Of a stretch of DNA of 64,000 nucleotides, positions 35,704 through 52,550 are shown in pieces (position 1 is the stretch's first letter; each line of letters opens with the position of its first letter). A program made the translations under genes and the position numbers. The stretch is taken from contig JBOEGD010000004.1 of assembly GCA_050633245.1 (NCBI GenBank), positions 109,866 through 173,865 of the forward strand, in the 5' to 3' direction. The notes beneath the pieces are model-generated. The model worked only from the letters and a program-made list of their open reading frames with translations. It was not told where the DNA came from and did no database searches. This DNA comes from Calditrichia bacterium. Its GTDB lineage: Bacteria > Calditrichota > Calditrichia > RBG-13-44-9 > J075.

Positions 35704-36597
35704 TTACTTGATCACCTTCACATACGTCGTATCGGTGATAACCGCTCCAAATACACCAATACCATCTCCAGCCAGATTTAGCACCGGCGCGTGAAAGTTG
35801 CCATCGTCTTCCTGCACATCGTCATAGGTCTTGATGTAGTTCTCGTAGTTCTCATCGCAGGCATAGCCAATCACCTGATACCGTCCGTAAAACGGCAGCT
35901 CGATCCAGAACAGTTCAATCTCACTGCGTCCCGGAGTGGTCGGCATATTCAAATACCATTCGTATTCAAAACGCAAACTGCCCAGATCCTCGCGAACGTC
36001 CTCCTCATCCAGGTCATCATAAGGATTACCGTAGACATAAGACTCTACGCTGCCGTCGATAGCCCAGGTAGAGAAAAGATAGAAGTCGATTCCGGGTGAG
36101 CGTTCGAATTCAATGCTGAAACGCGTCAGGTCGCCGTTGGAATTAGTCTGCCGATACTGCATGCTATCCGCGTTTGTACCCGTTATATCCATGCCGAGCT
36201 GAGGAACAGTGGTAACAGCAGATGTTTGCAAATCCTTACCAGCTACGGTTGCTGAAACATTCAGCTCATAACTGCTGCCGGGAAGAATTATTAGGTCACT
36301 TCCGGGATAAAAATAAGTCCCCTCGTTTGGAGCGTAAGCGAGCGCATAATCCTGCTGGGTTGCAACATCTGTTAATGTGACAACCGCATCCTGAATCAGC
36401 AGTTCTTCGAGACTGATGCGCTCGTTCACCCGGAAGTTACGCGAGATAAAAACGTCGCCAACTCCCTCACCGGGAGTAAGTATGGCAAAGACCGAAATCT
36501 TGGGCTCATAGAGTGAATCATCTACCTTCAAAGTGCCTTCACCACATCCGGAATTAGAAAGAACAATAGCAAGCAAAAGCAATAGTATATAACGCAT
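35704..36597 (-). CDS. DUF4249-like lipoprotein (partner of the TonB-dependent receptor)
   Basis: Lipobox NSGC; YELNV..GK...AVTTVP; C-terminal N..GDGIGVFGA. Confidence 0.75.
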   Translation of the reverse strand: MRYILLLLLAIVLSNSGCGEGTLKVDDSLYEPKISVFAILTPGEGVGDVFISRNFRVNERISLEELLIQDAVVTLTDVATQQDYALAYAPNEGTYFYPGSDLIILPGSSYELNVSATVAGKDLQTSAVTTVPQLGMDITGTNADSMQYRQTNSNGDLTRFSIEFERSPGIDFYLFSTWAIDGSVESYVYGNPYDDLDEEDVREDLGSLRFEYEWYLNMPTTPGRSEIELFWIELPFYGRYQVIGYACDENYENYIKTYDDVQEDDGNFHAPVLNLAGDGIGVFGAVITDTTYVKVIK

Positions 36598-36624
36598 TGG
36601 TGTTTCTCCATTCATCATCATTTA

Positions 36625-38964
36625 TTAGAACTGTAGTCGGAATCCGATTGTTGGCAAAATAGGGAACATGTTCACCGTTTCGATCTCGGGAATACCCTGC
36701 GAGTAATCGTATTCAACAAACCAGATGTTTTTGCGATTGCCGACATTAAATACCTGTATATACGAATCGAGTGCCCAGTTGGTGAACTTTTTTTTGTAGG
36801 TTAGACTAACGTCGAGCCGGGCATAGTGGGGGAGACGCACACTATTGATTGCCGCAGGAAAATAAGCCAGGTCAATACTACCTGTTCCCGGCAACTCGCC
36901 GGTTAAATAGGCTGAACCAGGCTGAGTAATTGGTTGTCCCGAGCTATAGACGCCATTCAACCCGAATACCCAGCGTCCCGGCTTGCCATTGCTCGATTTT
37001 CCACGCAGTTTACGTATGGCATTCGGTATATCAATATTGCTTACGATATTCACTGTGGAATGACGGTCGTGTCGCGGGGCAAATTCTTCACCGGCGTTGA
37101 GCGTTCCAAACTCATAGCGTGTGCGCGTATAGCTGTAACCAATCCATCCGTTTATGGCGCCGCTATTTTTGCGAAAGAGTAGTTCTGCACCACTGCTTTG
37201 CCCATCTCCGCCGTTAAAAATACCCTGCGTGTCGCTGAAAATAGGATCGCCGTTTTCATTAAAACCGGAATTCTGCAGCTCTGTAAGAAAGGTTTGATTG
37301 AATTGATAAATGTTGCGATACCGTTTGAAGTAACCCTCAATTTCAAATTCATAGTTACGCGCCACTTCCTGTTGATAGCCGAGAATAAAATGGTCGGCTT
37401 CAGACTTATCCTGATACTGATTGGCTGTGCTCCAGATGTCGGAGGCGACAGTTTGTGGAATGCGATTAAGGAACTGATGATAGCGCCCAACGGCGGCTTT
37501 TAAATTCACGGTATTGGTAAGTCGGTATTTGAGTGAAGCTCTTGGCTCCCAGCTCTGAAAATCCTTATCAGACGTAAAGTAATTATAGCGTATTCCGGCT
37601 TCAATATCCCAGCGAGTTGATGGTCGCCAGCTGTTTTGTAAATACCCGGTATAGTGCTTTGGACGTTGATCGATATCGACTTCACCACCGGGGAATTCTT
37701 CCTTATATATCACGTGTAGATTTTTCTGCTCGAAACCAAATCTCACCAGCCAGGCCGCGCTATGATGATATTCCAAATTCCCTTTCAGTGACACGTCTGA
37801 AATAAAGTTCTTCGCTTTTGCCGGGAGAATACTGGTGACGTCGAAGGTGGAGGAAAAACGACTACCAGTTAGCCAGAAGTTGCCGAATAGACGTGGCGTG
37901 AAAACACTGGTAAGGCGAGCACTTCCGGTTTGATTTCCCCAATTTAAGTCAAAACCTGAGCGCACTGTTGCGTTCGGATTTAACGTCACCTTCAGAACAT
38001 CGCTGCCACCGTACCCACTTAGCGTTAGCTTGTGAGAAGGGGAGAGCTCATAAAATGCCTTGAGGTTTCCGTCATAAAAGTAATACTCCGGAAGATCGTC
38101 ATTTAATTTTGCGACTGTCTTGTCAAAATACGTTCTGCGAATAGAACCTGAAATCGCTCCTTTTTCTCCAAGCGGCATTTGCAAGGTAGTCTTTGCCGAT
38201 AGCAGGCTAACCGAAGCGCTTCCCTGAAATTCATTACGATTACCATCGAGATTGATAACGTCAAGTATAGAAGACAGCCTTCCACCGTAGGATGCGTTAA
38301 ATCCACCTTTTGAAATTTCCACGTGCTTAATGGCATCTGTATTAAATGTCGAAAAGATTCCGAAAGCGTGTTCCGGATTATATACATCTGTGCCGTCGAT
38401 CAGATACAGGTTTTGATCCGGAGTGCCGCCACGAACGTAAAGGGCGGAAGAGAAATCTGACACCGCCTGCACGCCGGGAAGGGTTTGCAGAGAGCGAAGC
38501 AAATCGCCCTCTGCAACCTGGGGGATGGCATTAATCTGCCTGGGGGATAACTCGATATTGGAAATCGGTTTTTCATACAGCCTGATACTGGTTCGCACCG
38601 AGTCGGCAACAACATCTACAGACTGTCCCTCTACCACGTCTAATGGTAAGCGAACGTCAATTACTACGTTTTCACCCGACTTAAGGTTTACTGTCTGCTT
38701 GAACAGTCGGTAACCAATCATCTCGCAAACGACCTCGTAGCTGCCAGCTGAAACCTGTGACACAAAATAGTAGCCACTGAGATTTGTTGAACCGCCTACG
38801 GCGAGTTCCGGGATATACACATTCGCCCCGATAATTGCCTCGCCATTGCTGGCGTCGTATACAAACCCGCTTATGGAAGCAGAGTTATCTTCGTTTGCCG
38901 AAGCATATCCACATATTAATGCAGCTGCAAATATCAAAACAATTAATAGTAGTCGCACATTCAT
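36625..38964 (-). CDS. TonB-dependent outer-membrane receptor with N-terminal carboxypeptidase-regulatory-like domain
   Basis: ISGFVYDASNGEAIIGANV; plug LQTLPGV...LYVRGGTPDQNLYLIDG; YGGRLSSILD; C-terminal Phe. Confidence 0.93.
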   Translation of the reverse strand: MNVRLLLIVLIFAAALICGYASANEDNSASISGFVYDASNGEAIIGANVYIPELAVGGSTNLSGYYFVSQVSAGSYEVVCEMIGYRLFKQTVNLKSGENVVIDVRLPLDVVEGQSVDVVADSVRTSIRLYEKPISNIELSPRQINAIPQVAEGDLLRSLQTLPGVQAVSDFSSALYVRGGTPDQNLYLIDGTDVYNPEHAFGIFSTFNTDAIKHVEISKGGFNASYGGRLSSILDVINLDGNRNEFQGSASVSLLSAKTTLQMPLGEKGAISGSIRRTYFDKTVAKLNDDLPEYYFYDGNLKAFYELSPSHKLTLSGYGGSDVLKVTLNPNATVRSGFDLNWGNQTGSARLTSVFTPRLFGNFWLTGSRFSSTFDVTSILPAKAKNFISDVSLKGNLEYHHSAAWLVRFGFEQKNLHVIYKEEFPGGEVDIDQRPKHYTGYLQNSWRPSTRWDIEAGIRYNYFTSDKDFQSWEPRASLKYRLTNTVNLKAAVGRYHQFLNRIPQTVASDIWSTANQYQDKSEADHFILGYQQEVARNYEFEIEGYFKRYRNIYQFNQTFLTELQNSGFNENGDPIFSDTQGIFNGGDGQSSGAELLFRKNSGAINGWIGYSYTRTRYEFGTLNAGEEFAPRHDRHSTVNIVSNIDIPNAIRKLRGKSSNGKPGRWVFGLNGVYSSGQPITQPGSAYLTGELPGTGSIDLAYFPAAINSVRLPHYARLDVSLTYKKKFTNWALDSYIQVFNVGNRKNIWFVEYDYSQGIPEIETVNMFPILPTIGFRLQF

Positions 38965-38983: not shown

Positions 38984-39850
38984 TTATTCACCTTCGATAG
39001 AAATATTGCCGTTTACTGCTTCTAAATTAATCGTTCCGTTTCCCGATCCCAGGCGGCCGCGTAGTGAGGTCGGCGTGCTCTGAGAATCCTGCAGTGGCAG
39101 CCCGATGGAAGAAATACCGCCATTGGTAACCTTTGCATTTAGTTGTGCGGACGTTCCTGTGGGAATCGTTAGAAAAACCTGACCGTTAACTGCCTCAAGG
39201 TCACATATGCCTCCCGGTAATAACGAGAGTTCTGCTACAATGTTACCGTTTACCAGATCGGAGTTGACATTCCCTCGAACGTCGTTTAAATAGATATTTC
39301 CATTGGTCAAATCGGCTGATACGTTTCCATTAATTGCAGCGGCATCAATTTGTCCATTCTCAACATCCACGATGACGGCTTCATTTATTTGAGAAATCGC
39401 AACATTACCGTTAATGTTATCGATGTTAACAAACCAGTCACGCGGCAGGCGCACAAAATAATCAACAATTACGTTTCTGCCATCCGTATCATGTGGTTGA
39501 TCGGTTAGCACGGTCAGGCGCTGATTTTCAATGATAATCTGAACCTGAACCTGATCGAGGAACCATCGCGCATCCCGCAGGCTGTTCGATTCAACGCGCC
39601 TTTCGCCATAGACAATAATTTCCTGTGAGCCGGAAACACCTATTACTTCGACATTTCCATTAATACCATCCACTACAAAGTCGCCCGGTCCGGTTACGTC
39701 AAAAGCATAATCAAAATCTGCGGATGCTACATAGTCATTTCCTCGGTAGTCTGAACCGAAATCTTCTACACAGGAAGAGAATAAAAGTAAAACCAGGCTA
39801 AGATAAAGACCTACTTTCAAAACGCTTTTAGTTGTTCGTTTATTTTTCAT
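38984..39850 (-). CDS. DUF4097-like beta-strand-repeat lipoprotein
   Basis: Lipobox FSSC; repeated (N/V)NGNV/I units. Confidence 0.8.
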   Translation of the reverse strand: MKNKRTTKSVLKVGLYLSLVLLLFSSCVEDFGSDYRGNDYVASADFDYAFDVTGPGDFVVDGINGNVEVIGVSGSQEIIVYGERRVESNSLRDARWFLDQVQVQIIIENQRLTVLTDQPHDTDGRNVIVDYFVRLPRDWFVNIDNINGNVAISQINEAVIVDVENGQIDAAAINGNVSADLTNGNIYLNDVRGNVNSDLVNGNIVAELSLLPGGICDLEAVNGQVFLTIPTGTSAQLNAKVTNGGISSIGLPLQDSQSTPTSLRGRLGSGNGTINLEAVNGNISIEGE

Positions 39851-39958
39851 GATAATCCCCTTTATAAATCGTTGTTTTCTGTTCTTTTTTACTGATTTTT
39901 GGCAAAGCACACCCGTTCGGCGGTTCACCGTTTTTTTTTAACTATATGTGTGTACAGA

Positions 39959-40645
39959 TTAGTCTTTTAGTTTTTTCAGAGCTGCTTTTGCTTCTTCAAT
40001 GGCGTTTTCATCACCACAGGTTTTTGCGTTTTCAAGTGCCCTGCGAAAGTTGGTTTCTGCCTGTTCTTTTTTTTCCAGTGCATCAAATGAACTGGCCAGT
40101 TTAAAATATAGATCGGTGCAGCCATGTTGGTCCGGATATCGTCGCAGGATGCTAATGCTTTTCATTACGACATTGGAATACAATTCGTGAATAAAGAGAG
40201 CATTTACTCCGTTGCTTTCCTTTGTCCATAAATCTTCCGAGGTAGACAGACTGACTTTGTCCTCGCTTTTTGCTCCGTGAACAACGCTTACCTTGCCGAG
40301 TTTAAGCTGTGCCGGAGCACTTCGCTTTTCAAGCTTCTCAATTTTCTGCCGCATCAAAAACAAAAACAGCTCTTTCTGCGTAATATCCCGTAGGTCGGCG
40401 ATGTCGAGAATGCTATTGCTCTCCAGAGTAAACTGCCGCTCGTCATCAAGCGAAAGCACCACGCTGCCATTTTCACCGGTAAGAATCGTATCAATATCCC
40501 TTAATATCATCTGTCTTGCTGCGCCAATCCATTCTTCGTCCATGCCGCGTCGGATTTTGACGCTACCGCTAAGCTCAATGATAGTTGCCTCAAGAGCGAT
40601 GAGTGGAAGGCTGAAAAGAATGATTGCTATAAACAGATGCTTCAT
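39959..40645 (-). CDS. Secreted FecR-like domain + TPR protein
   Basis: Signal peptide; IIELSGSVKIRR...DTILTGENGSVVLSL...LESNS (FecR N-terminal pattern); C-terminal TPR-like helices. Confidence 0.7.
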   Translation of the reverse strand: MKHLFIAIILFSLPLIALEATIIELSGSVKIRRGMDEEWIGAARQMILRDIDTILTGENGSVVLSLDDERQFTLESNSILDIADLRDITQKELFLFLMRQKIEKLEKRSAPAQLKLGKVSVVHGAKSEDKVSLSTSEDLWTKESNGVNALFIHELYSNVVMKSISILRRYPDQHGCTDLYFKLASSFDALEKKEQAETNFRRALENAKTCGDENAIEEAKAALKKLKD

Positions 40646-40667: not shown

Positions 40668-42260
40668 TTAGTTCACATCAAAAATTGAAACCCAGCCGTT
40701 ATCCACACCTTGCTTGATGATGCCATCCTGCAGATATTGTATGGCGCCGGTTTCCCATGCGCTGTTGAAGCCTTCTCGCAGCAAGGTTGTTTCAATGGGC
40801 AGCCATATCGAGCTGCTTCCGTTCGGGTTTTCGCGGACGATATATCGCTTTTCGTTACTGCTGATTTGCGATGCATTTTGAGGCGTTACTCCGGTATCGA
40901 GAAGCAGGTATATGTGTGCCAATGTTTCATCCGGATCCTGAACTTGTACAAAGGCTATATCTATTCCCAGACTTTGTAATACAGAGCCATAACAAATTAC
41001 CAAATCATCACAATCGCCACTTCGTAACCCAAGCGTCTCGCCCGCATACTGCACGCGATCATCGCTGTAGAACGGCACCTGTGGATCACTCTGATAGCTT
41101 ATTTTCATGGTGCCGAGAGAGTCGAAAGCCGCTTCGGCAAGCTGTAAGTTTGATGGTTGGGATCCAAGCGCCGAATTTAGATTCCTTCCCAACGTGCGAG
41201 CAAAATTAAAAACCGTCTCGTCTTCGGGCGTTAAGAAAAAGACAAGATTACTTACCGTGCCATCCCAACTGTTTCGGGTATGAACGAACAACTGTTCACT
41301 GATATGTTTGGTTGTCGTTCTGCCAGAGCGCCCTTCAATTTGAATATTCAGCATTGCGGGCTCGCGGGAACTCGACTTGCGATTTGCATCGTCAAAAAAC
41401 ACCTTAACCGGTATGTCCTGCGTCTCGCCCTTTTCCAACTTAACAAAACCACTTTCTCGCTGGCGATATGCGTAGGGAGGAAGTGTTGCGGCCACGTTTA
41501 TTTCGATATCATGTCCGGCTGTATTCTGAATTGTAATCAGAGCGAGCGGATAGTTGTTATAGAATCTCTGATAGGCCGGGTATATGTCTTCTACGATCAG
41601 GCGAGTCTGCTTTACCCGAAACATTTCGCGTTTCTTACCCCACATAAAAACCAGTCCCAGTCCAAACTCCGCTCCGCTTATGTCGGTTTTGGTAGTGAAG
41701 TCTACAAAGTGATAACGTGCGTCCAGGTTGAATCCGATCCAGCTGGTGAACGGAATATTTATTCCTGCTCCCAGATAACCCCCGAAATCGAATTGACTTC
41801 CGGCAGTTACAGATTCTATCTCTTCGCCCAGCTGTTCCTGTACCTCCACCTTTTGTCTCCAGTACCCTCCTGTTCCGGCAGAAATATAAGGCTGAATGCG
41901 GGTGCTGAGTGCCGGTGAGAAGAGATCATAACGAACACCTGCGAGAAGTGGAAACACGACGTCCACATCAACTGACGTACTGAGTGAATCTTCTTCAATA
42001 ATCGTCAGTCTGCTAACGGCTCCGGTGTTAAACTCCATAAACAGTTGATCCTGGATGCGGGAGTGGTAATACAACCATGCACCGACACCTTCAATATTCA
42101 CCCGATCGGGATTAATATCGTCTACGACGACTGAAAATGGATCTCCACCCATATTCCAGTAGCTTGCGCGAAAGCCGAGCCCGGAGTCTCGTTGAATGCC
42201 CTGTGCATGTAGTGACGTCGATAGCATGATTAATAGTCCGATTAGAAGCGATTGTTTCAT
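40668..42260 (-). CDS. Outer-membrane beta-barrel fused to a transglutaminase-like cysteine-protease domain
   Basis: Signal peptide; OmpA/OmpW-like strands (aa ~25-208); Ig-like linker; QYAGETL..RSGDCDD...AHIYLL...WLPIETT. Confidence 0.8.
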   Translation of the reverse strand: MKQSLLIGLLIMLSTSLHAQGIQRDSGLGFRASYWNMGGDPFSVVVDDINPDRVNIEGVGAWLYYHSRIQDQLFMEFNTGAVSRLTIIEEDSLSTSVDVDVVFPLLAGVRYDLFSPALSTRIQPYISAGTGGYWRQKVEVQEQLGEEIESVTAGSQFDFGGYLGAGINIPFTSWIGFNLDARYHFVDFTTKTDISGAEFGLGLVFMWGKKREMFRVKQTRLIVEDIYPAYQRFYNNYPLALITIQNTAGHDIEINVAATLPPYAYRQRESGFVKLEKGETQDIPVKVFFDDANRKSSSREPAMLNIQIEGRSGRTTTKHISEQLFVHTRNSWDGTVSNLVFFLTPEDETVFNFARTLGRNLNSALGSQPSNLQLAEAAFDSLGTMKISYQSDPQVPFYSDDRVQYAGETLGLRSGDCDDLVICYGSVLQSLGIDIAFVQVQDPDETLAHIYLLLDTGVTPQNASQISSNEKRYIVRENPNGSSSIWLPIETTLLREGFNSAWETGAIQYLQDGIIKQGVDNGWVSIFDVN

Positions 42261-42377: not shown

Positions 42378-43073
42378 TTAATACCGACCCCACATGAATG
42401 TCAGACCAAGACTGAAATCCAGCCCGTTTTGATAGATGCTGTTATTGCTTGGAAGATCAATCATATGATAGCGCAGGTCTCCGGTCAGTGCTACATGTCT
42501 ACCCAGCTTAAAATCTGCACCTCCGCCAAAATAGAATCCGGAATACGTTTCAGAAACGCTGCTTACTTCTTCTTCATAATAGAAGTAGTCTTCTATCTCA
42601 ACATCGCTGGTTATGTAGAAGCCACCACCAAACGAAATGAATGGTCGGATACCGGCACGTTGGTTAATTGGAACCATATCGTAGCGGAGACCGAATAATA
42701 ATGGTGCAACCGCATTAACCTTAACCAAATCGAAGTCTGCATATTCTTCGCTTATTTGCACTTTGCCAACTGCGCCAATGGAAACGTCAGCAATTAGCTG
42801 TTCGCCAATACGATTAAAAAAGACCAGGGAACCACCATAACCTTCAATGTTCAGATCGTTTCCATAACGACTGTTGCGAATACGGACACTCGGCTCTCCT
42901 ACAAAGGCATCCCAATAGTTGCCGCGGAAGGTGATTCCAGTGCTCGGAGCAGAATACCCACGCTTATAGCGTTTATCGTGGTGACGTTTATGGTGAAAAT
43001 CCTGAGCAAGCAGATGACTAAACCCGGATAAAAGAACTAAGATTGCCAAGGTGAACTTTAATTGCGTTTTCAT
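42378..43073 (-). CDS. Outer-membrane beta-barrel protein (8-stranded OmpA/OmpW-like)
   Basis: Signal peptide; alternating beta strands, RPFISFGGG, GFYFGGGADF, DLRYH, LGLTFMW. Confidence 0.8.
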   Translation of the reverse strand: MKTQLKFTLAILVLLSGFSHLLAQDFHHKRHHDKRYKRGYSAPSTGITFRGNYWDAFVGEPSVRIRNSRYGNDLNIEGYGGSLVFFNRIGEQLIADVSIGAVGKVQISEEYADFDLVKVNAVAPLLFGLRYDMVPINQRAGIRPFISFGGGFYITSDVEIEDYFYYEEEVSSVSETYSGFYFGGGADFKLGRHVALTGDLRYHMIDLPSNNSIYQNGLDFSLGLTFMWGRY

Positions 43074-43286: not shown

Positions 43287-45812
43287 CTAAATTGACGTTT
43301 GTCTTAGATGATCGATCAATTGTTGCAGAAAGGGATGATATGCTTTGGGAAGGCCGCGAAAAGCGGATTGCGCATCCTTGGCAGGATTTTTTAAGAGGTT
43401 GTTTAGATTGCCTAAATAGGCTCGCACTTTATTACCGGCTGCAGTAATTGTTTGTTTATCATTTTCTCCCGCCAGTTTTATGGCTGCCTCATCTATATCG
43501 AAATGGCATTCGGTTAGCGTGCGGAACACGATTCCGCGCAAGTATTCGGTAATGGTTCCCCGGTCGCGGTCTCCCAGTCTGCGGGCTGTTTGCGATATTG
43601 CCGATCGCGAGAACTTTAACTCACGCAGAGACTCAAGGATTTGCTGTTCCAGAGTAAGATATTCGCTTGCAGCAGCTTCTCCTTTGCTAAAGCGGATTTC
43701 TTCAGGTAAATCTTCCTGGCGAATGAGTTTTCTTCCGGCAGAAGCGGCTAACACCAACCCGCGCTGTATAACATTCTCCAGCTCACGAATATTGCCTGGC
43801 CAACTGTAGCGCGTTAATTGATTGAGTGCTTCCTGCGAGATGTTAGAAACTTCCGGGGCTGAAACTCCGGAATGTTTCGCAATAAAATGTGTAACCAACA
43901 GCGGAATATCATCCATACGTTCACGCAGTGGGGGCAATTTGATAGAAACACCGTTGAGGCGATAAAAGAGATCTTTCCGAAAACGCCCAGACTCCACCTC
44001 ATTCTGCGGATTGCGATTTGTAGCAGCAATTACACGCACATCTACCGCCAGAGTTTTTTCACCACCAACCTTCTCGAACGTACCTTCCTGCAATACGCGT
44101 AGTAAACGCGATTGGAATGGTGAATCGGTCTCGGTGATTTCATCGAGAAAAAGGGTTCCCTTATTAGCCAGTTCAAAACGTCCCTTACGCGCAGCGTGTG
44201 CCCCGGTAAAGCTGCCTTTCTCATGACCAAAAAGTTCACTATTCAATAGGTCGGTCGAGAGGGCGCCACAGTTTACCGCAATAAACGCATTGTTCTGCCG
44301 AATGCCTTTGCGATGTAGTTCTTGCGCGATGAGCTCTTTTCCGGTGCCGGTCTCACCAATTATTAATATAGATAAGTCGCTGTCACGAAAGGTATGGATC
44401 ATTTGAAGAACGTCGGCCATTTTTCCGTCAGGGGAGTGGATTATCGATGACGTGTTCTGTGAGGTTTCCGGCATAGAGGCGTTTACTGGCCTACTGGCTG
44501 TTTGTAAATCTCTCAATTCTTTTTCAAGACGTATAATGGTCGCTTTATGCTCCGAAGCTTTTATCTGAAGCTCTTCAGAACGCTCATTGTTTCCTGCCAA
44601 GCTCTCCCGAGCTGTTTGTAATTCAGTTTGCGCAACCTGGAGTTCATATGAACGTTTTACGATAGTTTCTTCTAAAAGACCTGCTTGTTGCAGCGTACTG
44701 CTCAATTTCTGTTTTCGAACCAGAATAAACGCGCCTCCAAAAAGAACAACTGACTGAATAACAGGTATGATAAAAGGAATGATGAGATTGAATTTTACGA
44801 AGGCTGCCACAGATGCAAAAATTACGCAGCATAATGTCGTCAGAAAAAGCAGCAAGGTGCGAAACGGACTGAGATTGAACCTTTGCCAGAAAAATAGACT
44901 GCTGAGTAAAACCAGAAGTATCGCTGATTGCCATAGTGTGTTCATAGAACGAAGTTCATTGTTGTTAATCAAATTCTCGGCGGTAGTAAGGTGAATGAGC
45001 GATGGCGGCAGCTCATTGGCGAGCGGCGTAGCAACGGGACTGATAACGCCGGAGTATACAACGCTTACCAAAACCATCTTATCGGTAAAATTCAGTGAAT
45101 CAGGTTTTTCTTGAAATTGTTTTAACACATCAACAAAGCTGTACTTTTGAACTTGCTCCCACGTACCAAAATGGTTTAGTCTGATTGTCTCGGCGTTAAA
45201 AACGGTCTCGCTGGCTCTTGCCGAGACATCATGACCGGCTTGTTTGAAATAAACTTCTGCGATTGCCTTGCCAAAGGAGGAAAATGTGTTGTTCTGCCAT
45301 GATGTATTGAGTGGTGTTTTAAGTAGTTGAGGTTCGGAGCCAATATTGCTAAAGCCAATTTGTGCAGCACTATTACGAATTTCATCTATTGGGAAAAGAG
45401 GATCGGTAGACTCCTTTGAAGATAAGTCTGCAAAGGCAAATGGTAGCACAGTGGGACCGCCGCTGAAGAAGCGAGATACATCCGAATCAAAAGCATCATT
45501 GGGTGAAGGCCTCTTTAGAAAAAGAATGTCGAATGCGATAACGCGAGCATTGAGTTCGGTTAAGATATGAGCCATGTATCCATAATAGTCTCTCGATACC
45601 GGCCACCCGCCCATATTCTCGATGTCGTCTTTATCAATATAGATGACCACAAAGTTGCTATCGAGCTGCCTCTCTCCGCGCATGTTTAGAAGTAAGCGAG
45701 TTTCGGTATCAAGAGCAGCTTGTTGCAGGTATGTGTTGTTGTTGCTAAATAATATGACTATTAGCATAAACGGAAAAAAGATTACCGGGCCGGAAAATAG
45801 TCGTGCTTTCAA
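43287..45812 (-). CDS. Membrane-anchored sigma54 enhancer-binding protein: CHASE2 + 3 TM + coiled coil + AAA+ + HTH with extension
   Basis: CHASE2 motifs VVIYIDKDDI..GGWPVSRD..ARVIAFDILF; KMVLV..TP..IH..ENL; AAA+ GETGTGKE, SELFGHEKGSFTGA, LFLDEI, FRKDLFYRL, WPGNIREL. Confidence 0.88.
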   Translation of the reverse strand: MKARLFSGPVIFFPFMLIVILFSNNNTYLQQAALDTETRLLLNMRGERQLDSNFVVIYIDKDDIENMGGWPVSRDYYGYMAHILTELNARVIAFDILFLKRPSPNDAFDSDVSRFFSGGPTVLPFAFADLSSKESTDPLFPIDEIRNSAAQIGFSNIGSEPQLLKTPLNTSWQNNTFSSFGKAIAEVYFKQAGHDVSARASETVFNAETIRLNHFGTWEQVQKYSFVDVLKQFQEKPDSLNFTDKMVLVSVVYSGVISPVATPLANELPPSLIHLTTAENLINNNELRSMNTLWQSAILLVLLSSLFFWQRFNLSPFRTLLLFLTTLCCVIFASVAAFVKFNLIIPFIIPVIQSVVLFGGAFILVRKQKLSSTLQQAGLLEETIVKRSYELQVAQTELQTARESLAGNNERSEELQIKASEHKATIIRLEKELRDLQTASRPVNASMPETSQNTSSIIHSPDGKMADVLQMIHTFRDSDLSILIIGETGTGKELIAQELHRKGIRQNNAFIAVNCGALSTDLLNSELFGHEKGSFTGAHAARKGRFELANKGTLFLDEITETDSPFQSRLLRVLQEGTFEKVGGEKTLAVDVRVIAATNRNPQNEVESGRFRKDLFYRLNGVSIKLPPLRERMDDIPLLVTHFIAKHSGVSAPEVSNISQEALNQLTRYSWPGNIRELENVIQRGLVLAASAGRKLIRQEDLPEEIRFSKGEAAASEYLTLEQQILESLRELKFSRSAISQTARRLGDRDRGTITEYLRGIVFRTLTECHFDIDEAAIKLAGENDKQTITAAGNKVRAYLGNLNNLLKNPAKDAQSAFRGLPKAYHPFLQQLIDHLRQTSI

Positions 45813-45897: not shown

Positions 45898-46314
45898 TCA
45901 TGCAGAAGCCGAAGAGATTTCCCGTGAGTTGTTAATCACCGAAATTTGATCGTTCAGGTTCCAATAGTCGTATAAATACCCAACCAAAAACAAACCGCCG
46001 GTCAGTAGGTATAGTATACCGGTAAACCATTTCTCCATATACATGCGATGCACACCAAATAAGCCCAGAAAGGTTAACAAGACCCAGGCTACGGTGTAGT
46101 CAATTTCTCCATCTTGAAAGCGGGCTGTTGCCTGCTCCTTCAAGGTTGGCATCAGAAACAAATCAACTATCCAACCGATCAGAAAGAGACCAAATGTAAA
46201 GAAATAAATTGTGCCAGAGATGGGGTTCCCATAGTAGAAACGATGCGAACCGGTAAATCCGAATATCCATAAAATGTATCCAATACCCAGACTGTGACTT
46301 TGATTGCCAATCAT
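45898..46314 (-). CDS. TM2/NINE domain membrane protein (two TM2 repeats)
   Basis: FGFTGSHRFYYG and FLGLFGVHRMYM repeats. Confidence 0.88.
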   Translation of the reverse strand: MIGNQSHSLGIGYILWIFGFTGSHRFYYGNPISGTIYFFTFGLFLIGWIVDLFLMPTLKEQATARFQDGEIDYTVAWVLLTFLGLFGVHRMYMEKWFTGILYLLTGGLFLVGYLYDYWNLNDQISVINNSREISSASA

Positions 46315-46366: not shown

Positions 46367-47197
46367 TTAACGTAGATTGAACCGAAGTCTAAGGCTGGTT
46401 TGAATATCACCCTGCGTATCGACATTGATGGTTGGCTGTACGTAGGGGCTACGAAATGCATCCAAAACGGTTAACCCCCAGGCTATGCCAGTTGACAGAA
46501 GCAGGGTCTTGCGTTTTTTTTGGCGATCATTATACGTCTTGTAAAGCTGGTCTATTTCAGGAAAGAAAGTTGCAGCTGTATAGACTTTCTTCGCATCACT
46601 TTCTTTTAACCAAACATAAGCGGTTGCGGCAATCAAACCGGAAACTGTGCCAGCAAAGAAAATCGAGCGGGTCTTGTGTCCTTTTTGCCACTGGCCAAGG
46701 CCGGGGAGTAACAGGCTGCGCACTCCGGCAGAAGGTCTGATATCTGGAACAGCCAGCTTTTCTTTAATGGTAATTGGAGACTCTGGCTCTTCTGTCGGTT
46801 GCTGCAGGCGTTTAATGTGAACAAAATCTTTACGGACATCTTCAAAAAAGCGCAGAATCTTAGGCGATGTTCTTATTGGGTCGAGATTGGCATTCTCATT
46901 TAGATTCAGAAGATTGATAAAGTGCTGCTTCGATGAATCCAGCTGAGCTGTATGAAAGAATGATATAGCCAGGGTCTCATGAGCCAGTTCTGCTGTCTGT
47001 TTGAGAAGGTCTGGAAATTGAAGCAATTTGTGTCCATGATGAAGTGCTTCTTCAAAATCTGCGGCCTTCAGTGCCGAATCCATTGCCTCTTTGTATTGCT
47101 CAATTGTCTGCGACTTTGCCGTCGATAGAAATAACAGAAGCAATATTAGAGGCATTATCGTTTTTGTAATCGCACTTGCACGATGCTGAATAGTCAT
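46367..47197 (-). CDS. TPR + DUF5683-like exported/membrane protein
   Basis: Signal peptide; TPR-like helices, LDPIRTSPKI; RSLLLPGLGQW; C-terminal beta strand. Confidence 0.7.
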   Translation of the reverse strand: MTIQHRASAITKTIMPLILLLLFLSTAKSQTIEQYKEAMDSALKAADFEEALHHGHKLLQFPDLLKQTAELAHETLAISFFHTAQLDSSKQHFINLLNLNENANLDPIRTSPKILRFFEDVRKDFVHIKRLQQPTEEPESPITIKEKLAVPDIRPSAGVRSLLLPGLGQWQKGHKTRSIFFAGTVSGLIAATAYVWLKESDAKKVYTAATFFPEIDQLYKTYNDRQKKRKTLLLSTGIAWGLTVLDAFRSPYVQPTINVDTQGDIQTSLRLRFNLR

Positions 47198-47204: not shown

Positions 47205-48827
47205 TCAAGGAGTTAACGTTATTTTTTTTCGAGTTACCTGATCTGCTATAATACTGATGCTGTCCGACCACGTCTGGAAGTTCGGATTGCTCAACATTAG
47301 CAAATGTCTGCCCTGCGGAAGCTCGAGTGGTTGAGAAAGAGGCGTTGTCTCGATAAACCGCCCGTTGCAGTGTACGTTTGCCCAGGGAATAACAGTCAGA
47401 TCAAGATAACCGAGAAGAGGCGATAAATCAATAGCAAGTGAGTCCGTTCTGGCTGATTGAATACTTAGGCTGTCGCTATAAGTGCTGAAGTTTGGGTTGC
47501 GAATTTCTATTGAATGTCGTCCTGCCGGCAACTCGATAGGCTCCATCATAGGCGTAGTATCGTATTCAATACCGTTGAGATAGATTACTCCCCATGGATT
47601 ACATAAAACATGCAGAAAACCGTTTTCTGCCTGAGCTAAAATGGGCTCCTTCTTTGCCACCGCCAGCGTATCACGTACTGTTGTCATCGGTTCCCCTCTT
47701 TTTAAAGATGGCTCTTTAGGATTTATTTCAGTCTGAGACGTTTCAATGAGTGTCTCAACGTCAGGTTCCTCAAGTGGGTTCTGATTGGATAGTGTGTCCG
47801 GCATTATCATTTCAGTCTGTTTATCTGCTCTGCTATGCACAGGTGTGCGCCATTGATGTGCCGCAATTGCAATAAACAAGGACGACAGCAGAATTCCGAC
47901 CATCAGAAGTAGCTTTCCGCCACTAAAAGTGTTTTCGAATGAGGAAATATCCCTTCCCTGCCGAGGCATTGAATTGTTGACATGCGGAGCTGCCACAAGC
48001 TTGGCAATGCGCGGGCTGTCGGGGTTCGTCTCGGATGTATCGAATCTCACCAAAAGCTCACTGGCTGTGCCAGGTCGTAGAGTCACATCTTTTTGCAGCA
48101 TGTCCATGACCAAATTGCTAAACCAGTCTGGCAGTTCTGGTCGCAGTTGATTCGGGGCAGGGGGTACGTTATTTAAAATTTGCTGCATGCACTCTCCGGC
48201 GCTTTTTGCAGCGAAGGGAGATTCACCAACGGCCATTTCGTAAAAGGTAATTCCGCAGCTAAACAGATCGCTGGAAGATGATATTGCGCTACCGCTGATT
48301 TGCTCCGGCGACATATATGCAGGTGTTCCCACGGTGCCATACTGAGCTGTTACCTTTGGTAAATCTGCTACTGTTGCAAGACCAAAATCAACTATTTGAG
48401 CTCGTCCCTCCGAGCTAATTAAAATATTGGCTGGCTTTATATCCCGATGAATAACCTTATGATCGTGCGCATAGTGCAATCCGGAAAGAATTCCACGCGA
48501 AATGCTGCAAATAATATCGAAGGGCAGGGGAGAGTGCAGCTGAATAAACTCATCTAACGGATTACCTTCAACAAATTCGATAATCATATAGAGGGCATCT
48601 TTTTCGGTGCCGACATCGAAAATACTGATTATATTGGGATGTTTAAGACGAGCACAAATCAGTGCCTCGCGGCGAAAGCGTTCAACGAGCTCATCATCTT
48701 TTTGCCATTGGGTGTTGAGAACCTTTATAAGAACGGGTCTGTCTAATGCCGACTGTTTTCCGCGATATACCGTGGTTATTGGACCGCGACTGAGTTCATC
48801 AAGTAGTTCGAAACCCTCAATCTTCAT
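47205..48827 (-). CDS. Hanks-type membrane Ser/Thr protein kinase with two extracytoplasmic PEGA-like domains
   Basis: VLIKVL, HPNI, HRDIKPAN, DFG, GTPAYMSPEQ; one TM helix; two PW..(I/V)..NG....TTP....LP.GRH repeats. Confidence 0.92.
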   Translation of the reverse strand: MKIEGFELLDELSRGPITTVYRGKQSALDRPVLIKVLNTQWQKDDELVERFRREALICARLKHPNIISIFDVGTEKDALYMIIEFVEGNPLDEFIQLHSPLPFDIICSISRGILSGLHYAHDHKVIHRDIKPANILISSEGRAQIVDFGLATVADLPKVTAQYGTVGTPAYMSPEQISGSAISSSSDLFSCGITFYEMAVGESPFAAKSAGECMQQILNNVPPAPNQLRPELPDWFSNLVMDMLQKDVTLRPGTASELLVRFDTSETNPDSPRIAKLVAAPHVNNSMPRQGRDISSFENTFSGGKLLLMVGILLSSLFIAIAAHQWRTPVHSRADKQTEMIMPDTLSNQNPLEEPDVETLIETSQTEINPKEPSLKRGEPMTTVRDTLAVAKKEPILAQAENGFLHVLCNPWGVIYLNGIEYDTTPMMEPIELPAGRHSIEIRNPNFSTYSDSLSIQSARTDSLAIDLSPLLGYLDLTVIPWANVHCNGRFIETTPLSQPLELPQGRHLLMLSNPNFQTWSDSISIIADQVTRKKITLTP

Positions 48828-50286
48828 CTACCAGGCCCCATTCTTTCAGCCTGTATTGCAACCATCTTCTGGAAACACCCAACAAATCCGCAGCTTTGGT
48901 CCGATTGTCGTCGGTGATCTCGAGAGTTTTAAGAATAACATGCTTTTCAATTTCTTTCAGCGGTTTACCGATAAGCGTATTCATTTTTTGCGGGCGGTTT
49001 AATTGAAAAGATTCTCCACCTACTTTTTGATTCTTTGTTAAAATAACGGCGCGTTCCATCGCATTCTCCAGCTCACGAATATTGCCCGGCCAGTGATAGC
49101 CCTTCAGGCTTTGTATGGCATCGGCAGTTAATTTTAGCGATTTGTTCGCACGTGCTTGAAACTTCTTCAGGAAATGCTCAGCCAGTAAAGGAATGTCGCT
49201 TGGGCGTTCGCGCAGTGGAGGGATTTTTAAAGAAATAACGTTCAATCGATAGAATAAATCTTCGCGAAACCGACCCGCTTGGGATTCTTCCCAAAGATCC
49301 TTATTCGTCGCAGAAAGAATTCGCACATCAACCTTACGCATTGAGTTTTCGCCAACGCGTTTGATTTCACCTTCTTGCAAAACACGCAAAAGTTTGGTTT
49401 GAACGGTTGGACTGATGTCGGCAATTTCATCAAGAAATAGCGTGCCGCCATCAGCTTCCTCAAATAGACCGGGCTTGTCTTCACTTGCCCCGGTAAAGGA
49501 GCCCTTTTTATGTCCAAAGAGTTCACTTTCTAGCAAGTTTTCGCTCAGGTTTCCGCAAAAGAGCGGTATGAATAGCTTCTCATTTCGCAGCGAGTTGTTG
49601 TGTATCGCTCTGGCAACCAGTTCCTTCCCGGTGCCACTTTCTCCTTCAATTAAGACTGACACATTTGATTCGGCAACATCCTGAATGGTAGACAAAACAG
49701 TCTTAATTCCAGCACTCTTGCCAACGATATCCGGTGCGATAGTGGTGCTGGCAATATCGCGACGTAGTTGCTTGTTTTCTGTCGATAACCGCTCGAACTC
49801 CGCAGCATTGCTTAATGCAATGGCTGCTTGTCTGGCAAAGGCCTGCAGAAACAGAAGATTTTCCTGATTGAACTTTCCGGCTCCGGAGCGCGAGTCCATA
49901 TAAATGGCACCAATAAGCGAAGTATTGCTGACAATGGGAGTGCACATTACGGAGCGAATATTGTGAAGCATGATGCTCGCCGCTCCAGAGAAGCGTTGAT
50001 CTTCCTGCGCATCAACGGCCAGCAGTGGCTCTCCCTCTGCGAGCACTTTATTGACAACACTGCTAGACAGATCGCGAATAGAGGCAATAATGTCGCTGCT
50101 TATATTGCGTGCCGTTACAGCCTTAAACTCGCTTTCGCCTGTCGACTTTAACAGCAGGAATCCACGTTCAGCCTCCACTGCACCCATTGCCATATCCATT
50201 ATCCGATCTAAAAGTAGATCAGAGGCCAGCACAGAATTCAATTCCTCGCCGATTGAAAGTAATGCGTCGTATGTATTTGTTGGCAT
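48817..50286 (-). CDS. GAF-domain sigma54-dependent transcriptional activator (GAF-AAA+-Fis HTH)
   Basis: AERGFLLL, DAQEDQRF, IRSVMCTP (GAF); GESGTGKE, GSFTGA, WPGNIREL; NRTKAADLLGVSRR. Confidence 0.95.
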   Translation of the reverse strand: MPTNTYDALLSIGEELNSVLASDLLLDRIMDMAMGAVEAERGFLLLKSTGESEFKAVTARNISSDIIASIRDLSSSVVNKVLAEGEPLLAVDAQEDQRFSGAASIMLHNIRSVMCTPIVSNTSLIGAIYMDSRSGAGKFNQENLLFLQAFARQAAIALSNAAEFERLSTENKQLRRDIASTTIAPDIVGKSAGIKTVLSTIQDVAESNVSVLIEGESGTGKELVARAIHNNSLRNEKLFIPLFCGNLSENLLESELFGHKKGSFTGASEDKPGLFEEADGGTLFLDEIADISPTVQTKLLRVLQEGEIKRVGENSMRKVDVRILSATNKDLWEESQAGRFREDLFYRLNVISLKIPPLRERPSDIPLLAEHFLKKFQARANKSLKLTADAIQSLKGYHWPGNIRELENAMERAVILTKNQKVGGESFQLNRPQKMNTLIGKPLKEIEKHVILKTLEITDDNRTKAADLLGVSRRWLQYRLKEWGLVDED

Positions 50287-50296: not shown

Positions 50297-51556
50297 CTAT
50301 TTTACGTATATCAGTCTGGTTATTGCCGAGCTGAAATCGCCTTTAAAGACTGCAAAATAGAGCCCGGACGGGTTTTCTGAATTATCTGAACTGGTATTCC
50401 AAAGAACTGTAGACTTACCTGCAGGAAAGACCTCATTTGCAAGGGTGGTCACCAGTCGACCGGCAACATCAAAGATTTTCAGAGTGGCTTTCTGTCGTCG
50501 CTGCAAATTAATTTCGAGTGTGGCCTGACCATTGAATGGATTTGGATAAGCTCGCAGCAGAGAAAAACCTTCGATAATTTCCGTTCTGTCTTCTATACCG
50601 GTTTTAATAGACTGAAATACTTCAACCCGGTTCAACGGTTGGAGCGGGTCGGCGCTATAGCCGCCGATTATATAAGGCCGCCCCATAATGGTCGCTCCAC
50701 TTGCACCAATTCTGCCGGAAGTTAAGGCGGTGCCTTCTTCGATCTCTCCCGAGGTCTTGTTATAAATCTCGACTCTGTCGCTGGGGCCGCTTGTGGTAAC
50801 TCCACCCATCATAAAAATACTATCGCCAACTACCGCCGTCGCCCCATTTCCGCGACTACCGAGCAGCTGCGGTAGCGGAGAGAATAGCAGGCTGTCTGCA
50901 GAAGTGATTGCGCTGAATCCACTTCTTATTGGAAGGACAAAGATGCCTCCCATAACAAAAGTTGTGTTGCCTATCGTTGCACTGAACGGGGCTGCTCTAG
51001 GGGATGCAACAACACCGCTGGATACTTGCCAAAAACCACCACCGGTTTGTAAGTATTCGATGCTATTGAGATAATCTTCATTTGAGCCAATTCCGGCGAA
51101 GATAAAAAGCGACCCGGAAATTACGCTGGCCACATGCCCCTCTCTAATACTTGCCAGCATGTTACTGGTTCGCCAGTTGTCAGAAACAGGATTATATATT
51201 TCAATACTGTTGAGCACATTACCGGTTGAGTCACGTCCACCAATTAAATAGAATTCGTCTTCGAAAAGTGTTGCGCTTGCGTTAACCCGAGGCGTTTTAA
51301 ATGTCGGGATGGCCGTTGTGTCCCAGCTGTTCTCAATAGGGCTATAAACTTCAACAGACTTTAAGGTTTCTCCGCTTTCGGAATTTCCACCGAAAATGTA
51401 GATTTTGTCCTGATATGAAATCGCCGATGCGCCATGTCGCGCCAGGTTCAACGTAGCTACTTCAAACCAGTCGCCCTGCTTATTCGTCTCTTGCGCATGT
51501 GCATGTAGAATGCCCATCAGCACAGCGAACAACAATATGTAGCGGAAACAGGTCAT
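50297..51556 (-). CDS. Secreted Kelch beta-propeller protein with Por/T9SS-type C-terminal domain
   Basis: Signal peptide MTCFRYILLFAV; six Kelch repeats (IYIFGG, FYLIGG, FIFAG, FVMGG, FMMGG, YIIGG); AYPNPFN tail. Confidence 0.9.
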   Translation of the reverse strand: MTCFRYILLFAVLMGILHAHAQETNKQGDWFEVATLNLARHGASAISYQDKIYIFGGNSESGETLKSVEVYSPIENSWDTTAIPTFKTPRVNASATLFEDEFYLIGGRDSTGNVLNSIEIYNPVSDNWRTSNMLASIREGHVASVISGSLFIFAGIGSNEDYLNSIEYLQTGGGFWQVSSGVVASPRAAPFSATIGNTTFVMGGIFVLPIRSGFSAITSADSLLFSPLPQLLGSRGNGATAVVGDSIFMMGGVTTSGPSDRVEIYNKTSGEIEEGTALTSGRIGASGATIMGRPYIIGGYSADPLQPLNRVEVFQSIKTGIEDRTEIIEGFSLLRAYPNPFNGQATLEINLQRRQKATLKIFDVAGRLVTTLANEVFPAGKSTVLWNTSSDNSENPSGLYFAVFKGDFSSAITRLIYVK

Positions 51557-51569
51557 AGTTTCAGGAACC

Positions 51570-52550
51570 TTAGTTTTGTAAAATCGAAAAAGCTGCCGGC
51601 TTTGAGCGACTGCTATTGCCAAATTCATCCACAATATATAGCACCCAAAATAGAGGTTTTTCCTCGGGCAACTGTGGATCGATAGGTGTCGAATATGTAT
51701 AACGGGTTGTGCCGGGACGAAATCCATCGATTTCTACGAGAAGTAGAGTCGTGTCGATCTGGATTTCATAGATTTCAATTTTATAAGTAAAATCTACAAG
51801 TTGCGTTACAAGTTCCCACTCCATGACAAATGGAATAGTCACCACATCGTCTGCTATAGGGCGGCTTGTAACGGGTGTTGTGTCAATTATCCGGCTAATA
51901 AATTTGTCTTCTGATGCGGTTATACTGCCTTCTGAATCTTCTATAAAAAAGGTGAACGGTTTGCCGATCAAGCGCCTGATCGAGCTAATACCAATGTCAG
52001 TCGCCTCGAGCCGACCGAGGTAGAGATTCGACTGCAGAGAATCTTCCGTCAATGTATCAGCAAAAGCGAACGATGGCAGCTCATACCAACCGGTTAGCTG
52101 ACCTCCGGTTTGATCGGGGTCAATGCCCTGAAGTTCTACATCAATATAGAACTCATCTTCGGCAGGAAAAAAGCGTGAAACATGTCTTGTTAAAAGAGAG
52201 GCGCTCGCAAGTTGGGGAAGCGCATTTAGCTCGAACTCTATCGAGATCCCCTTGGTGAGATCGACAGACTGCTCAGTTGGAGCAAAACCTTCTGCCTCAC
52301 AAGAAATCGTATACGAACCGGATTGAATATTTTGTATCGCGAAGAAACCATTGTTATCGGTAATGGTTCCGACATTGGAGGGAGTTAAACTGATAAGCGC
52401 ACCTGACACGGGATTTTTACCGATTGAGGTTAATACTTGACCTGTAATGGAAAATCCATCTTTTGAATCGAAGGGATTCTCACGCGGTGCATCAGAGAAA
52501 CAGCCAGCCATAAGCAGGCAAAATGCAATATTTGCAACGCGTTTAAGCAA
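51570..52550 (-). CDS. Lipoprotein with carboxypeptidase-regulatory-like (Ig) domain
   Basis: Lipobox MAGC, DAPRENPFD, ITGQV...GALI...TDNNGFF.I.NI..GSY; start approximate (TTG 52550). Confidence 0.8.
   Translation of the reverse strand: MLKRVANIAFCLLMAGCFSDAPRENPFDSKDGFSITGQVLTSIGKNPVSGALISLTPSNVGTITDNNGFFAIQNIQSGSYTISCEAEGFAPTEQSVDLTKGISIEFELNALPQLASASLLTRHVSRFFPAEDEFYIDVELQGIDPDQTGGQLTGWYELPSFAFADTLTEDSLQSNLYLGRLEATDIGISSIRRLIGKPFTFFIEDSEGSITASEDKFISRIIDTTPVTSRPIADDVVTIPFVMEWELVTQLVDFTYKIEIYEIQIDTTLLLVEIDGFRPGTTRYTYSTPIDPQLPEEKPLFWVLYIVDEFGNSSRSKPAAFSILQN

Follow-up and report, generated by a model that had tools for sequence, protein, structure and literature searches.

Two adjacent sigma-54 signalling modules in a Calditrichia genome, one of them a predicted one-component CHASE2 switch

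Gene Content of the Region

The region described here spans positions 35704-52589 of a 64,000-nucleotide stretch of a Calditrichia bacterium contig (JBOEGD010000004.1, positions 109,866 to 173,865; assembly GCA_050633245.1), hereafter the window. It comprises 13 open reading frames (ORFs), g01 to g13, all on the minus strand (Table 1). An initial annotation, made from the letters of the window, had read these genes as one self-contained trans-envelope signalling system laid out in two blocks. Gene content, conservation, DNA motifs with their phasing, and phyletic profiles instead divide the region into module A (g01-g05, 46367-52589), with a membrane Ser/Thr kinase and a GAF-domain sigma-54 activator, and module B (g07-g13, 35704-45812), in which a CHASE2-domain sigma-54 activator precedes a set of envelope genes. 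The region probably represents two independent sigma-54 signalling modules that are neighbors only in this genome, with module B acting as a one-component switch.

Several elements of the initial annotation hold. The 13 co-oriented genes were recovered as ORFs between 35704 and 52589, and most of the domain labels agree with Pfam, including CHASE2, Sigma54_activat and PEGA; the FecR family (PF04773) was not reached by g10, and Transglut_core (PF01841) was matched in orthologues of g09 and not in the window copy. As first stated, no histidine kinase (HisKA/HATPase_c) or receiver domain occurs among the 13 proteins (Pfam, E<=0.01), the initial reading of signalling without two-component phosphorelay is supported, and rpoN (30469-31953) lies 3.75 kb from the 13 genes, close to the 4 kb originally given. 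PADLOC returned generic kinase-domain or AAA+ activator matches on g03, g04, and g07 and nothing on the other ten proteins, so that an anti-phage defense role was rejected.

Synteny and Phyletic Distribution

The 13 proteins were compared by tblastn with about 19 kb around each g07 orthologue found in a search of 40 relatives. Full-length g07 orthologues (39-47% identity) are present in 13 of the 40, and in nine of these loci g08, g09, and g10, mostly accompanied by g11, lie 3' of g07; of the other four loci, two terminate at contig ends and two have the operon elsewhere in the genome. Orthologues of g01, g02, g04, g05, and g06 were found in none of the 13, and the genes 5' of g07 in eight relatives are unrelated (fmt/def/yajC/tgt, PEP carboxykinase, DinB, MatE, and others). 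Scanning a g09 alignment against one genome per species extended the sample to 52 loci, all from metagenome-assembled genomes (MAGs) labelled Calditrichia, Calditrichaeota, KSB1, Zhuqueibacterota, 'Cytophagia' or 'bacterium'; nine of the 52 share genomes with the first 13 g07 loci. Within this larger set g10 directly follows g09 in 50 loci, g11 is present in 40 and g07 in 32, and g08 is the first gene past the promoter in most. The TonB receptor g12 lies within the operon, at variable positions, in 15 loci, and g13 in six, always after g12. Module A genes and g06 are absent from all 52. A CHASE2 activator (851-903 amino acids (aa), one cut by a contig end) is encoded elsewhere in each of five genomes tested that have no operon-adjacent g07.

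Phyletic profiles agree with this picture. Matches to g09 and to the CHASE2 half of g07 fall in an identical set of 20 of the 86 genomes of the phylum, the other 66 having neither (for one of these 20 the g09 match was confined to the barrel, beside g07 on a short contig), while g05 was found in 32 of 41 genomes. The genes for kinase g04 and for g05 adjoin each other in many of the 40 genomes, including some without g07, and in a genome that holds both modules (G023) they lie far apart, at 1.30 Mb (module A) and 3.01 Mb (module B). Because synteny and phyletic patterns differ between the blocks, the 13-gene unit is a juxtaposition of two modules. A co-location check set beforehand gave a divided result, with homologues co-located within each block and scattered between the two; the two blocks are real, as independent modules, and the self-contained 13-gene system was not upheld. 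The TM2 protein g06, without a tblastn match in the 13 g07 loci, 15 module A loci or 52 g09 loci, is conserved with neither module. Linkage to rpoN was likewise rejected: rpoN was found in no related locus searched with it (the 13-, 15-, and 52-locus sets), and its closeness in this genome therefore looks incidental.

Table 1. Genes and candidate regulatory sites of the two modules (positions in the window).
Feature	Position	Strand	Basis
g01, module A, CarboxypepD_reg-like lipoprotein	51570..52589	-	PF13715 E 4e-15; lipobox LMAGC in translation
g02, module A, secreted Kelch beta-propeller with type IX secretion system (T9SS) C-terminal sorting domain	50297..51727	-	Kelch_1 E 7e-34; Por_Secre_tail E 1.4e-7
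g03, module A, GAF / AAA+ sigma-54 activator / Fis-type helix-turn-helix (HTH)	48817..50286	-	Sigma54_activat E 2.8e-69; GAF 1.2e-15; HTH_8 9e-11
g04, module A, membrane Ser/Thr kinase with extracytoplasmic PEGA domains	47205..48827	-	Pkinase E 1.7e-54; PEGA 4e-10
g05, module A, small envelope protein with TPR-like N-terminal half and weak DUF5683-like C-terminal half	46367..47197	-	
g06, TM2-domain membrane protein	45898..46314	-	Pfam TM2 E 1.3e-28
g07, module B, membrane-integral sigma-54 activator	43287..45812	-	CHASE2 2e-29; Sigma54_activat 5.5e-66
Candidate enhancer (upstream activating sequence) palindrome GCGGAATTTTTCCGC	43259..43273	-	Sequence; motif comparison
Predicted sigma-54 type -24/-12 promoter TGGCATCGCGCTTGT	43145..43159	-	Motif match; orthologous positions in related loci
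g08, module B, small outer-membrane beta-barrel	42378..43073	-	OMP_b-brl E 2.5e-6, just below cut-off
g09, module B, barrel + Ig-like + transglutaminase-like domain	40668..42260	-	Pfam OMP_b-brl; AF2 model; Foldseek
g10, module B, secreted beta-sandwich / helix / TPR-like protein	39959..40645	-	AF2 model; complex model
g11, module B, DUF4097 ('toastrack', LiaG-like) lipoprotein	38984..39928	-	DUF4097 E 1.6e-6; lipobox LFSSC
g12, module B accessory, TonB-dependent receptor	36625..38964	-	CarboxypepD_reg + Plug + TonB barrel (Pfam)
g13, module B accessory, DUF4249 lipoprotein paired with g12 receptor	35704..36621	-	DUF4249 E 2.5e-11

The CHASE2 Sigma-54 Activator

The g07 protein consists, in order, of a transmembrane segment, a periplasmic CHASE2 domain, a transmembrane block, a linker, an AAA+ domain with a GSFTGA loop, a candidate HTH that is Fis-like but divergent, and a further conserved stretch of about 85 aa. 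The CHASE2 match (PF05226, 103 bits against a cut-off of 26.3, residues 17-304) places it among CHASE2 receptors, and hydropathy locates hydrophobic segments at residues 5-23 and about 292-366 on either side of this domain. Both g07 and g03 match PF00158 and possess Walker A GETGTGKE, Walker B LFLDEI, and the GSFTGA loop, and both are thereby assigned to the sigma-54 activators. Pfam HTH_8 was not matched in g07; its C-terminal 125 residues are highly conserved (29 sequences). With residues 1-440 as query, 37 homologous 90% clusters were recovered, all of which combine CHASE2 with Sigma54_activat under generic database names ('sigma 54-interacting transcriptional regulator' or similar), and the next relatives beyond them are CHASE2 adenylate cyclases. 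Literature searches covering material other than subscription journals and supplements found no description of CHASE2 together with enhancer-binding or sigma-54, nor of a membrane-bound or transmembrane bacterial enhancer-binding protein (bEBP); the words 'transmembrane' and 'CHASE' do not occur in Francke 2011 (PMC3162934). The CHASE2-activator module is well supported and combines two known kinds of protein, a bEBP and a CHASE2 receptor, in a form for which no published description was found in the searchable literature.

A paralogous system is present in relative G007 (L092, G007:C6:152000-166000, 1060-8122). Its genes encode, in order, PspA/IM30, an unknown protein of 342 aa, another CHASE2 sigma-54 activator of 803 aa, a protein of 688 aa that has the Ig and transglutaminase-like part in common with g09 (hhalign probability 99.9), and one of 235 aa with weak colinearity to g10. 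Near these genes the motif GGYAY-N5-TTG was not found. At three other loci (L015, L016, and L019, in relatives G011, G007, and G003), which represent two genera (g4, g8) of the window's family, there is, 5' of g07, a divergently oriented gene whose product is a beta-helix protein ending in a TonB domain, with a PEP carboxykinase gene in between in two of the three.

Regulatory DNA of the Envelope Operon

Two DNA elements separate g07 from g08. A palindrome, GCGGAA-N3-TTCCGC, starts 13 nt past the g07 stop codon and 114 nt 5' of the -24 element of a predicted promoter core, TGGCAT-N5-TTGT, which in turn lies 72 nt 5' of the g08 ATG. Across related loci the interval between g07 and the first operon gene holds the same two elements, with the consensus GCGGRA-N3-TYCCGC followed by GGYAY-N5-TTG(C/A/T). 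In the 52 loci and the window, all 39 operon-strand palindromes have GGYAY-N5-TTG at +80 to +140 nt (background 0.006 per 60 nt), the -12 element being TTGC in 25, TTGA in nine, and TTGT in five. It is from these related loci that the window promoter draws its support, since the window match alone is not above chance. The -24/-12 site initially proposed is present, at 43159-43145, and the placing of a CHASE2 bEBP directly 5' of a sigma-54 type promoter for outer-membrane and periplasmic genes proves to be a conserved arrangement. The weak sigma-70-like promoter once assigned to block 1 fared less well, as a scan of the window for sigma-70 promoters found 27 sites against 27.9 expected; terminators were also at chance level (19 against 18.1). 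Three polyA RNA runs and one contig set yielded 0 reads on 35600-52700, a blank that speaks neither for nor against expression.

The distance from palindrome to promoter falls into discrete classes of 91 nt (one locus), 100-104 nt (17), 111-114 nt (nine, including the window at 114), and 122-125 nt (12). The best fit is obtained with a period of 10.9 bp (resultant 0.85, compared with 0.50 at the 99.9th percentile of a null of random spacings), a contrast that is overstated in that the test treats related loci as independent. The two elements accompany the operon at loci that have no g07 next to it as well, and neither motif occurs within 350 nt 5' of g07 in any of 25 loci or in the window, for which reason autoregulation of g07 through these motifs was rejected. 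Nine such palindromes occur in the 6.35-Mb genome, and only the one at 43259-43273 has a sigma-54 motif downstream. The favored interpretation of these patterns is an enhancer and a promoter that are paired on one face of the helix and serve a single local target. A second palindrome, GCGGAACACGATTCCGC, with a 5-nt spacer, lies inside the 3' part of g07 (43521-43537, minus strand), about 250 nt 5' of the main one, and was not observed to be conserved at other loci.

Envelope Proteins of Module B

The g08 barrel is paralogous to that of g09. In the AF2 model of g09 (pLDDT 87.6) an 8-stranded barrel is followed by an Ig-like domain and an alpha/beta domain. Foldseek matches the barrel to OmpA (1bxw, 1e-6), OmpX, Ail, and OmpW, and the alpha/beta domain to protein 4.2, TG3, and FXIIIa at E 3.7e-4 to 6.9e-4; a profile search of solved structures returned only a barrel (9nh2, E 0.0075). 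Transglut_core has no match in the window protein and matches six of the seven members of the alignment (A1), that is, all six orthologues scanned (best E 9.8e-7), and C417, H449, and E490 are invariant in 50 sequences. Judged by modelled fold and conserved residues, the C-terminal domain is a transglutaminase-like Cys-His-Glu fold. Because the barrel is even-stranded, the domains C-terminal to it should be periplasmic. Structural look-alikes of g09 in the Atlas include longer, TPR-fused forms of 619-1017 aa in Fidelibacterota and Spirochaetota clusters, which could be fusions of g09-like and g10-like parts.

The g10 protein has a cleavable signal peptide and neither an anti-sigma domain nor a transmembrane anchor. 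Its AF2 model (pLDDT 89.7, pTM 0.83) comprises a beta-sandwich (residues 19-81), a conserved helix (90-103), and a TPR-like region (136-227). The window protein scores E 0.12 and 13.2 bits against FecR PF04773 (cut-off 24), and two of seven alignment members match the family at E<=1 (best 0.015). Atlas look-alikes of the model include FecR/TPR and FecR/LysM clusters (TM 0.37-0.46); Foldseek against the PDB gave nothing at E<=0.001, a profile search of solved structures gave TPR matches only, and a wide VIA structure search had no FecR chain among the best 50 matches listed. For the beta-domain, the best VIA match among those listed is 5ix9, a 'cell surface anchoring domain' (Z 11.6, root-mean-square deviation 2.9 over 74 residues). 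The FecR label of the initial annotation is unproven.

The remaining products are g11, which resembles LiaG (NCBIfam E 3e-14, below cut-off), g12, and g13. By Pfam, g12 consists of an N-terminal CarboxypepD_reg domain, a Plug, and a barrel only, without an STN signalling domain. The features of Fec-type cell-surface signalling are accordingly missing from 35704-52589: there is no STN domain on g12, no anti-sigma domain in g10, and no gene for an extracytoplasmic function (ECF) sigma factor (sigma70_r2/r4, Pfam).

A structural model of the CHASE2 domain (g07 residues 24-292) with g10 (residues 20-228) reached an ipSAE of 0.79 (individual runs 0.81, 0.79, and 0.79), the best control giving 0.01. 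A value of 0.79 is attained by 58 of 80 solved complexes and by two of 110 mismatched pairs. The runs share at least 95% of contacts, the pLDDT of the partner is 80, and the modelled contact joins F94, L95, and K101 of the g10 helix to the CHASE2 segment around D75, Y76, and Y79. The model supports binding of g10 to the CHASE2 domain but does not show it.

Module A

Orthologues of g01-g05 cluster together in 14 loci of related genomes and in a second copy in this genome. In these 15 loci the activator and the kinase are always present, g05 in 14 (adjoining the kinase or the Kelch gene), the Kelch gene in 12, and g01 in 11, several of the absences coinciding with contig ends. The orthologues of g03 are 56-65% identical across all 15, and the Kelch gene occupies three alternative positions within the cluster. 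The second copy (contig C36, about 54.4-60.7 kb) encodes a lipoprotein, a GAF activator, a Kelch protein, a PEGA kinase, and a g05-like protein; its identity to the window copy is 31-56%, and no CHASE2 module adjoins it.

Within the window copy, the coordinates of g01 are those of the longest ORF, an alternative start at 52550 also being possible, and g02 likely begins at an ATG at 51555, its hydrophobic signal segment starting at residue 58 (hydropathy). The g04 kinase has a single transmembrane segment (306-324) with the PEGA domains outside, and its gene overlaps that of g03 by 11 nt. The g05 match to Pfam DUF5683 (E 4e-4) is below cut-off. In six of six loci ordered activator-kinase-Kelch, a motif GGCAY-N5-TTGY adjoins the stop codon of the kinase gene and lies 40-60 nt ahead of the Kelch start; the order in the window differs, with the Kelch gene ahead of the activator gene. 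A conserved TTTGGCAA before the Kelch gene was rejected as a sigma-54 motif, being coding sequence shared with a related locus (L028). In module A, the secreted Kelch/T9SS protein is probably controlled through sigma-54 by the membrane PEGA kinase and the GAF activator, whose genes overlap translationally. A path from kinase to GAF activator to sigma-54 controlling a T9SS-secreted Kelch protein is plausible, and weakly supported in the window copy.

A Proposed Mechanism for Module B and Its Alternatives

We propose that g07 is a one-component, membrane-integral sigma-54 switch in which a periplasmic CHASE2 domain is connected through four membrane spans to the AAA+ domain and a divergent Fis-like DNA-binding end. 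The protein would occupy the GCGGAA-N3-TTCCGC palindrome just behind its own stop codon and, from the same helix face, remodel sigma-54 RNA polymerase at TGGCAT-N5-TTGT. Activation would turn on an operon composed entirely of envelope genes, encoding the two OmpA-like barrels, g10, and the LiaG-like g11, and here also the TonB receptor and the DUF4249 lipoprotein. The barrel proteins g08 and g09 are the probable outer-membrane contacts of the system, and g10 is predicted to dock on CHASE2 via its conserved central helix. Because this predicted partner of the sensor is encoded in the operon that the sensor would control, a feedback loop would be closed. Regulon-encoded modulators of envelope-stress sensors include CpxP, LiaF, and PspA. 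By analogy with these, g10 may be a regulon-encoded damper titrated away by an envelope signal, an alternative only slightly preferred to that of a positive co-receptor relaying from the barrels, in the manner of NsrA with the CHASE2 cyclases. DNA binding and activation by g07, the g10-CHASE2 contact, and the sign of the feedback are inferred. The role of module B is likely surveillance or remodelling of the outer envelope.

Several observations weigh against parts of this interpretation. The compared genomes are related MAGs, so that counts across loci are not independent. The window -12 element is TTGT, a minority form, and not TTGC, and -24/-12 matches in the window are at chance level (three against 1.47 expected, with 19 of 100 shuffles reaching three). 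At the DNA-binding end, the C-terminal 136-137 residues of four g07 orthologues have no significant Pfam match, and the hhalign alignment of g07 718-751 with the g03 HTH_8 has low confidence there. The ipSAE of the CHASE2-g10 complex is the model's own confidence, obtained with alignments built in this analysis, and the interface is only modestly more conserved than the domains around it, a difference that is not significant (1688 and 725 of 10000 random sets are equally conserved). For module A, no sigma-54 motif precedes the Kelch gene in seven loci with other gene orders, including the window. The proposal also gives no account of how a membrane-tethered hexameric AAA+ ATPase reaches promoter DNA. 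One tentative reading, which we hold to be somewhat short of an even bet, is that g07 acts while embedded in the inner membrane, the CHASE2 domain gated by g10 controlling assembly of the AAA+ ring and the promoter being kept at the membrane through its own envelope products, which would insert there as they are translated. If true, this would constitute a one-protein route from the periplasm to open-complex formation without second messenger, phosphorelay or proteolytic release, and a first handle on how a CHASE2 domain gets its signal.

The most durable of the alternatives, an unlikely one nonetheless, sees module B as an uptake regulon, induced by substrate, of the Fec or polysaccharide-utilization type, in which the TonB receptor senses a nutrient and the CHASE2 activator induces the transporter. 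The operon does contain a TonB-dependent receptor in the window and in 15 of the 52 loci, the receptor gene being the first past the palindrome in seven loci, and DUF4249 occurs in six; the receptor is nevertheless missing from 37 of the 52 and is therefore not part of the core, whose invariant members are the barrels, the transglutaminase-like protein, and g10. The structure of g12, without STN, and the lack by Pfam of an ECF sigma factor or anti-sigma domain in the region also speak against this model.

Decidedly improbable is the joint control of the promoter at 43159-43145 by the Ser/Thr kinase, the GAF activator, and the CHASE2 activator, with all 13 genes forming one trans-envelope system. 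Co-orientation and the short gaps around g06 (52 and 85 nt) would permit read-through from block 1 into g07 in this genome, and sigma-54 activators are present in both blocks. Set against this are the absence of block 1 genes from beside the CHASE2 module (0 of 13 and 0 of 52 loci), the unrelated housekeeping genes 5' of g07 in eight relatives, the separate location of module A in genomes holding both (1.30 Mb against 3.01 Mb in G023), the differing phyletic patterns (20 of 86 genomes against 32 of 41 for g05), and the second module A copy in this genome, which has no CHASE2 module alongside. The notion that the palindrome, with its 6-bp stem and 3-nt loop 13 nt past the g07 stop codon, is a mere terminator hairpin for g07 and that the -24/-12 match is served by another, distant activator is hardly credible given that the palindrome lacks a following T-tract, that its phased distance to the promoter (10.9-bp periodicity) is kept in loci without adjacent g07, and that the promoter motif follows it in 39 of 39 cases.

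Relation to Known Systems

In general, sigma-54 activators are described as being soluble and under the control of receivers, GAF/PAS domains or partner proteins. Module B, taken as a CHASE2 switch, resembles the NtrC/NifA/PspF family in the AAA+ core of g07 (Walker A GETGTGKE, Walker B DE, GSFTGA loop) and in the palindromic site about 100-125 bp 5' of a -24/-12 promoter, and differs in its input, a periplasmic CHASE2 domain joined via four membrane spans. In the PspF-PspA, CpxA-CpxP, and LiaS-LiaF systems the modulator of the regulator is encoded in the regulator's own regulon. PspF is a soluble sigma-54 activator, whereas g07 is membrane-integral, and PspA, CpxP, and LiaF have no sequence homology to g10. 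Two further likenesses are that LiaG, a DUF4097 protein to which g11 is similar at the sub-threshold level given above, is encoded in the Lia operon, and that the paralogous CHASE2 activator of relative G007 lies two genes after a PspA gene. Like FecA-FecR-FecI, module B would relay an envelope signal to an alternative sigma factor, and this copy includes a TonB receptor; unlike that system, g12 is without STN, g10 has no anti-sigma domain or transmembrane anchor, no ECF sigma factor is present, and the sigma factor would be sigma-54 rather than an ECF sigma-70.

Closer parallels on the sensory side come from other CHASE2 receptors. In S. meliloti the outer-membrane barrel NsrA signals to the CHASE2 cyclases CyaD1/CyaD2/CyaK (PMC13001267). 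The likeness to the switch proposed for module B consists in an outer-membrane beta-barrel acting upstream of inner-membrane receptors with a periplasmic CHASE2 domain, and in a trans-envelope signal reaching transcription without a histidine kinase (PMC13001267). The output of the NsrA pathway is adenylate cyclase, then cAMP, then the CRP-like Clr, whereas the CHASE2 domain of g07 is fused directly to a sigma-54 AAA+ activator; NsrA is likened to g08 and g09 by barrel type and proposed role. CHASE2 and FecR also meet in the Burkholderia 'BiofilmReg' cluster, comprising genes for a response regulator, LysM-FecR, a CHASE2-kinase, and DUF4136 (PMC5192318), and in a Campylobacterota cluster of a CHASE2 cyclase, an outer-membrane protein with a FecR domain, and a TPR-containing protein (PMC9239204). 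In these clusters the gene for a CHASE2 receptor accompanies those for a beta-rich secreted protein and for a TPR protein, and g10 combines a beta-sandwich with TPR-like repeats. Their output is a histidine kinase or cyclase, whereas that of module B is a sigma-54 activator; moreover, g10 is below the Pfam FecR threshold with no solved FecR domain among its listed fold matches, and the partners in module B sit, unlike those of the clusters, in the target operon.

Neighboring Features

Genes for hslV-like (Proteasome family) and hslU-like (AAA_2) proteins (28432-30434, minus strand) lie directly 3' of rpoN. Between rpoN and the 13 genes is a VIT-VWA-FlgD_ig gene (32439-34517), with a second sigma-54-like site, TGGCACAGTGGTTGT, 73 nt 5' of it (32352-32366, plus strand). 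A strong 13-bp GC-rich hairpin (35464-35492, plus strand) separates a convergent S4 gene from g13 and is likely a bidirectional terminator closing the operon.

Significance

For annotation, these results mean that two widespread Calditrichota/KSB1 cassettes, each using sigma-54, are to be called separately and not merged where they happen to be adjacent. Module B may also serve as a compact model for signalling by CHASE2, a domain whose ligands and partners are largely unknown. Its candidate parts are few: a single sensor, a single predicted periplasmic partner whose interface is defined, and a single enhancer and promoter. Across genomes, its loci offer naturally occurring spacers whose lengths step by whole turns of the helix.

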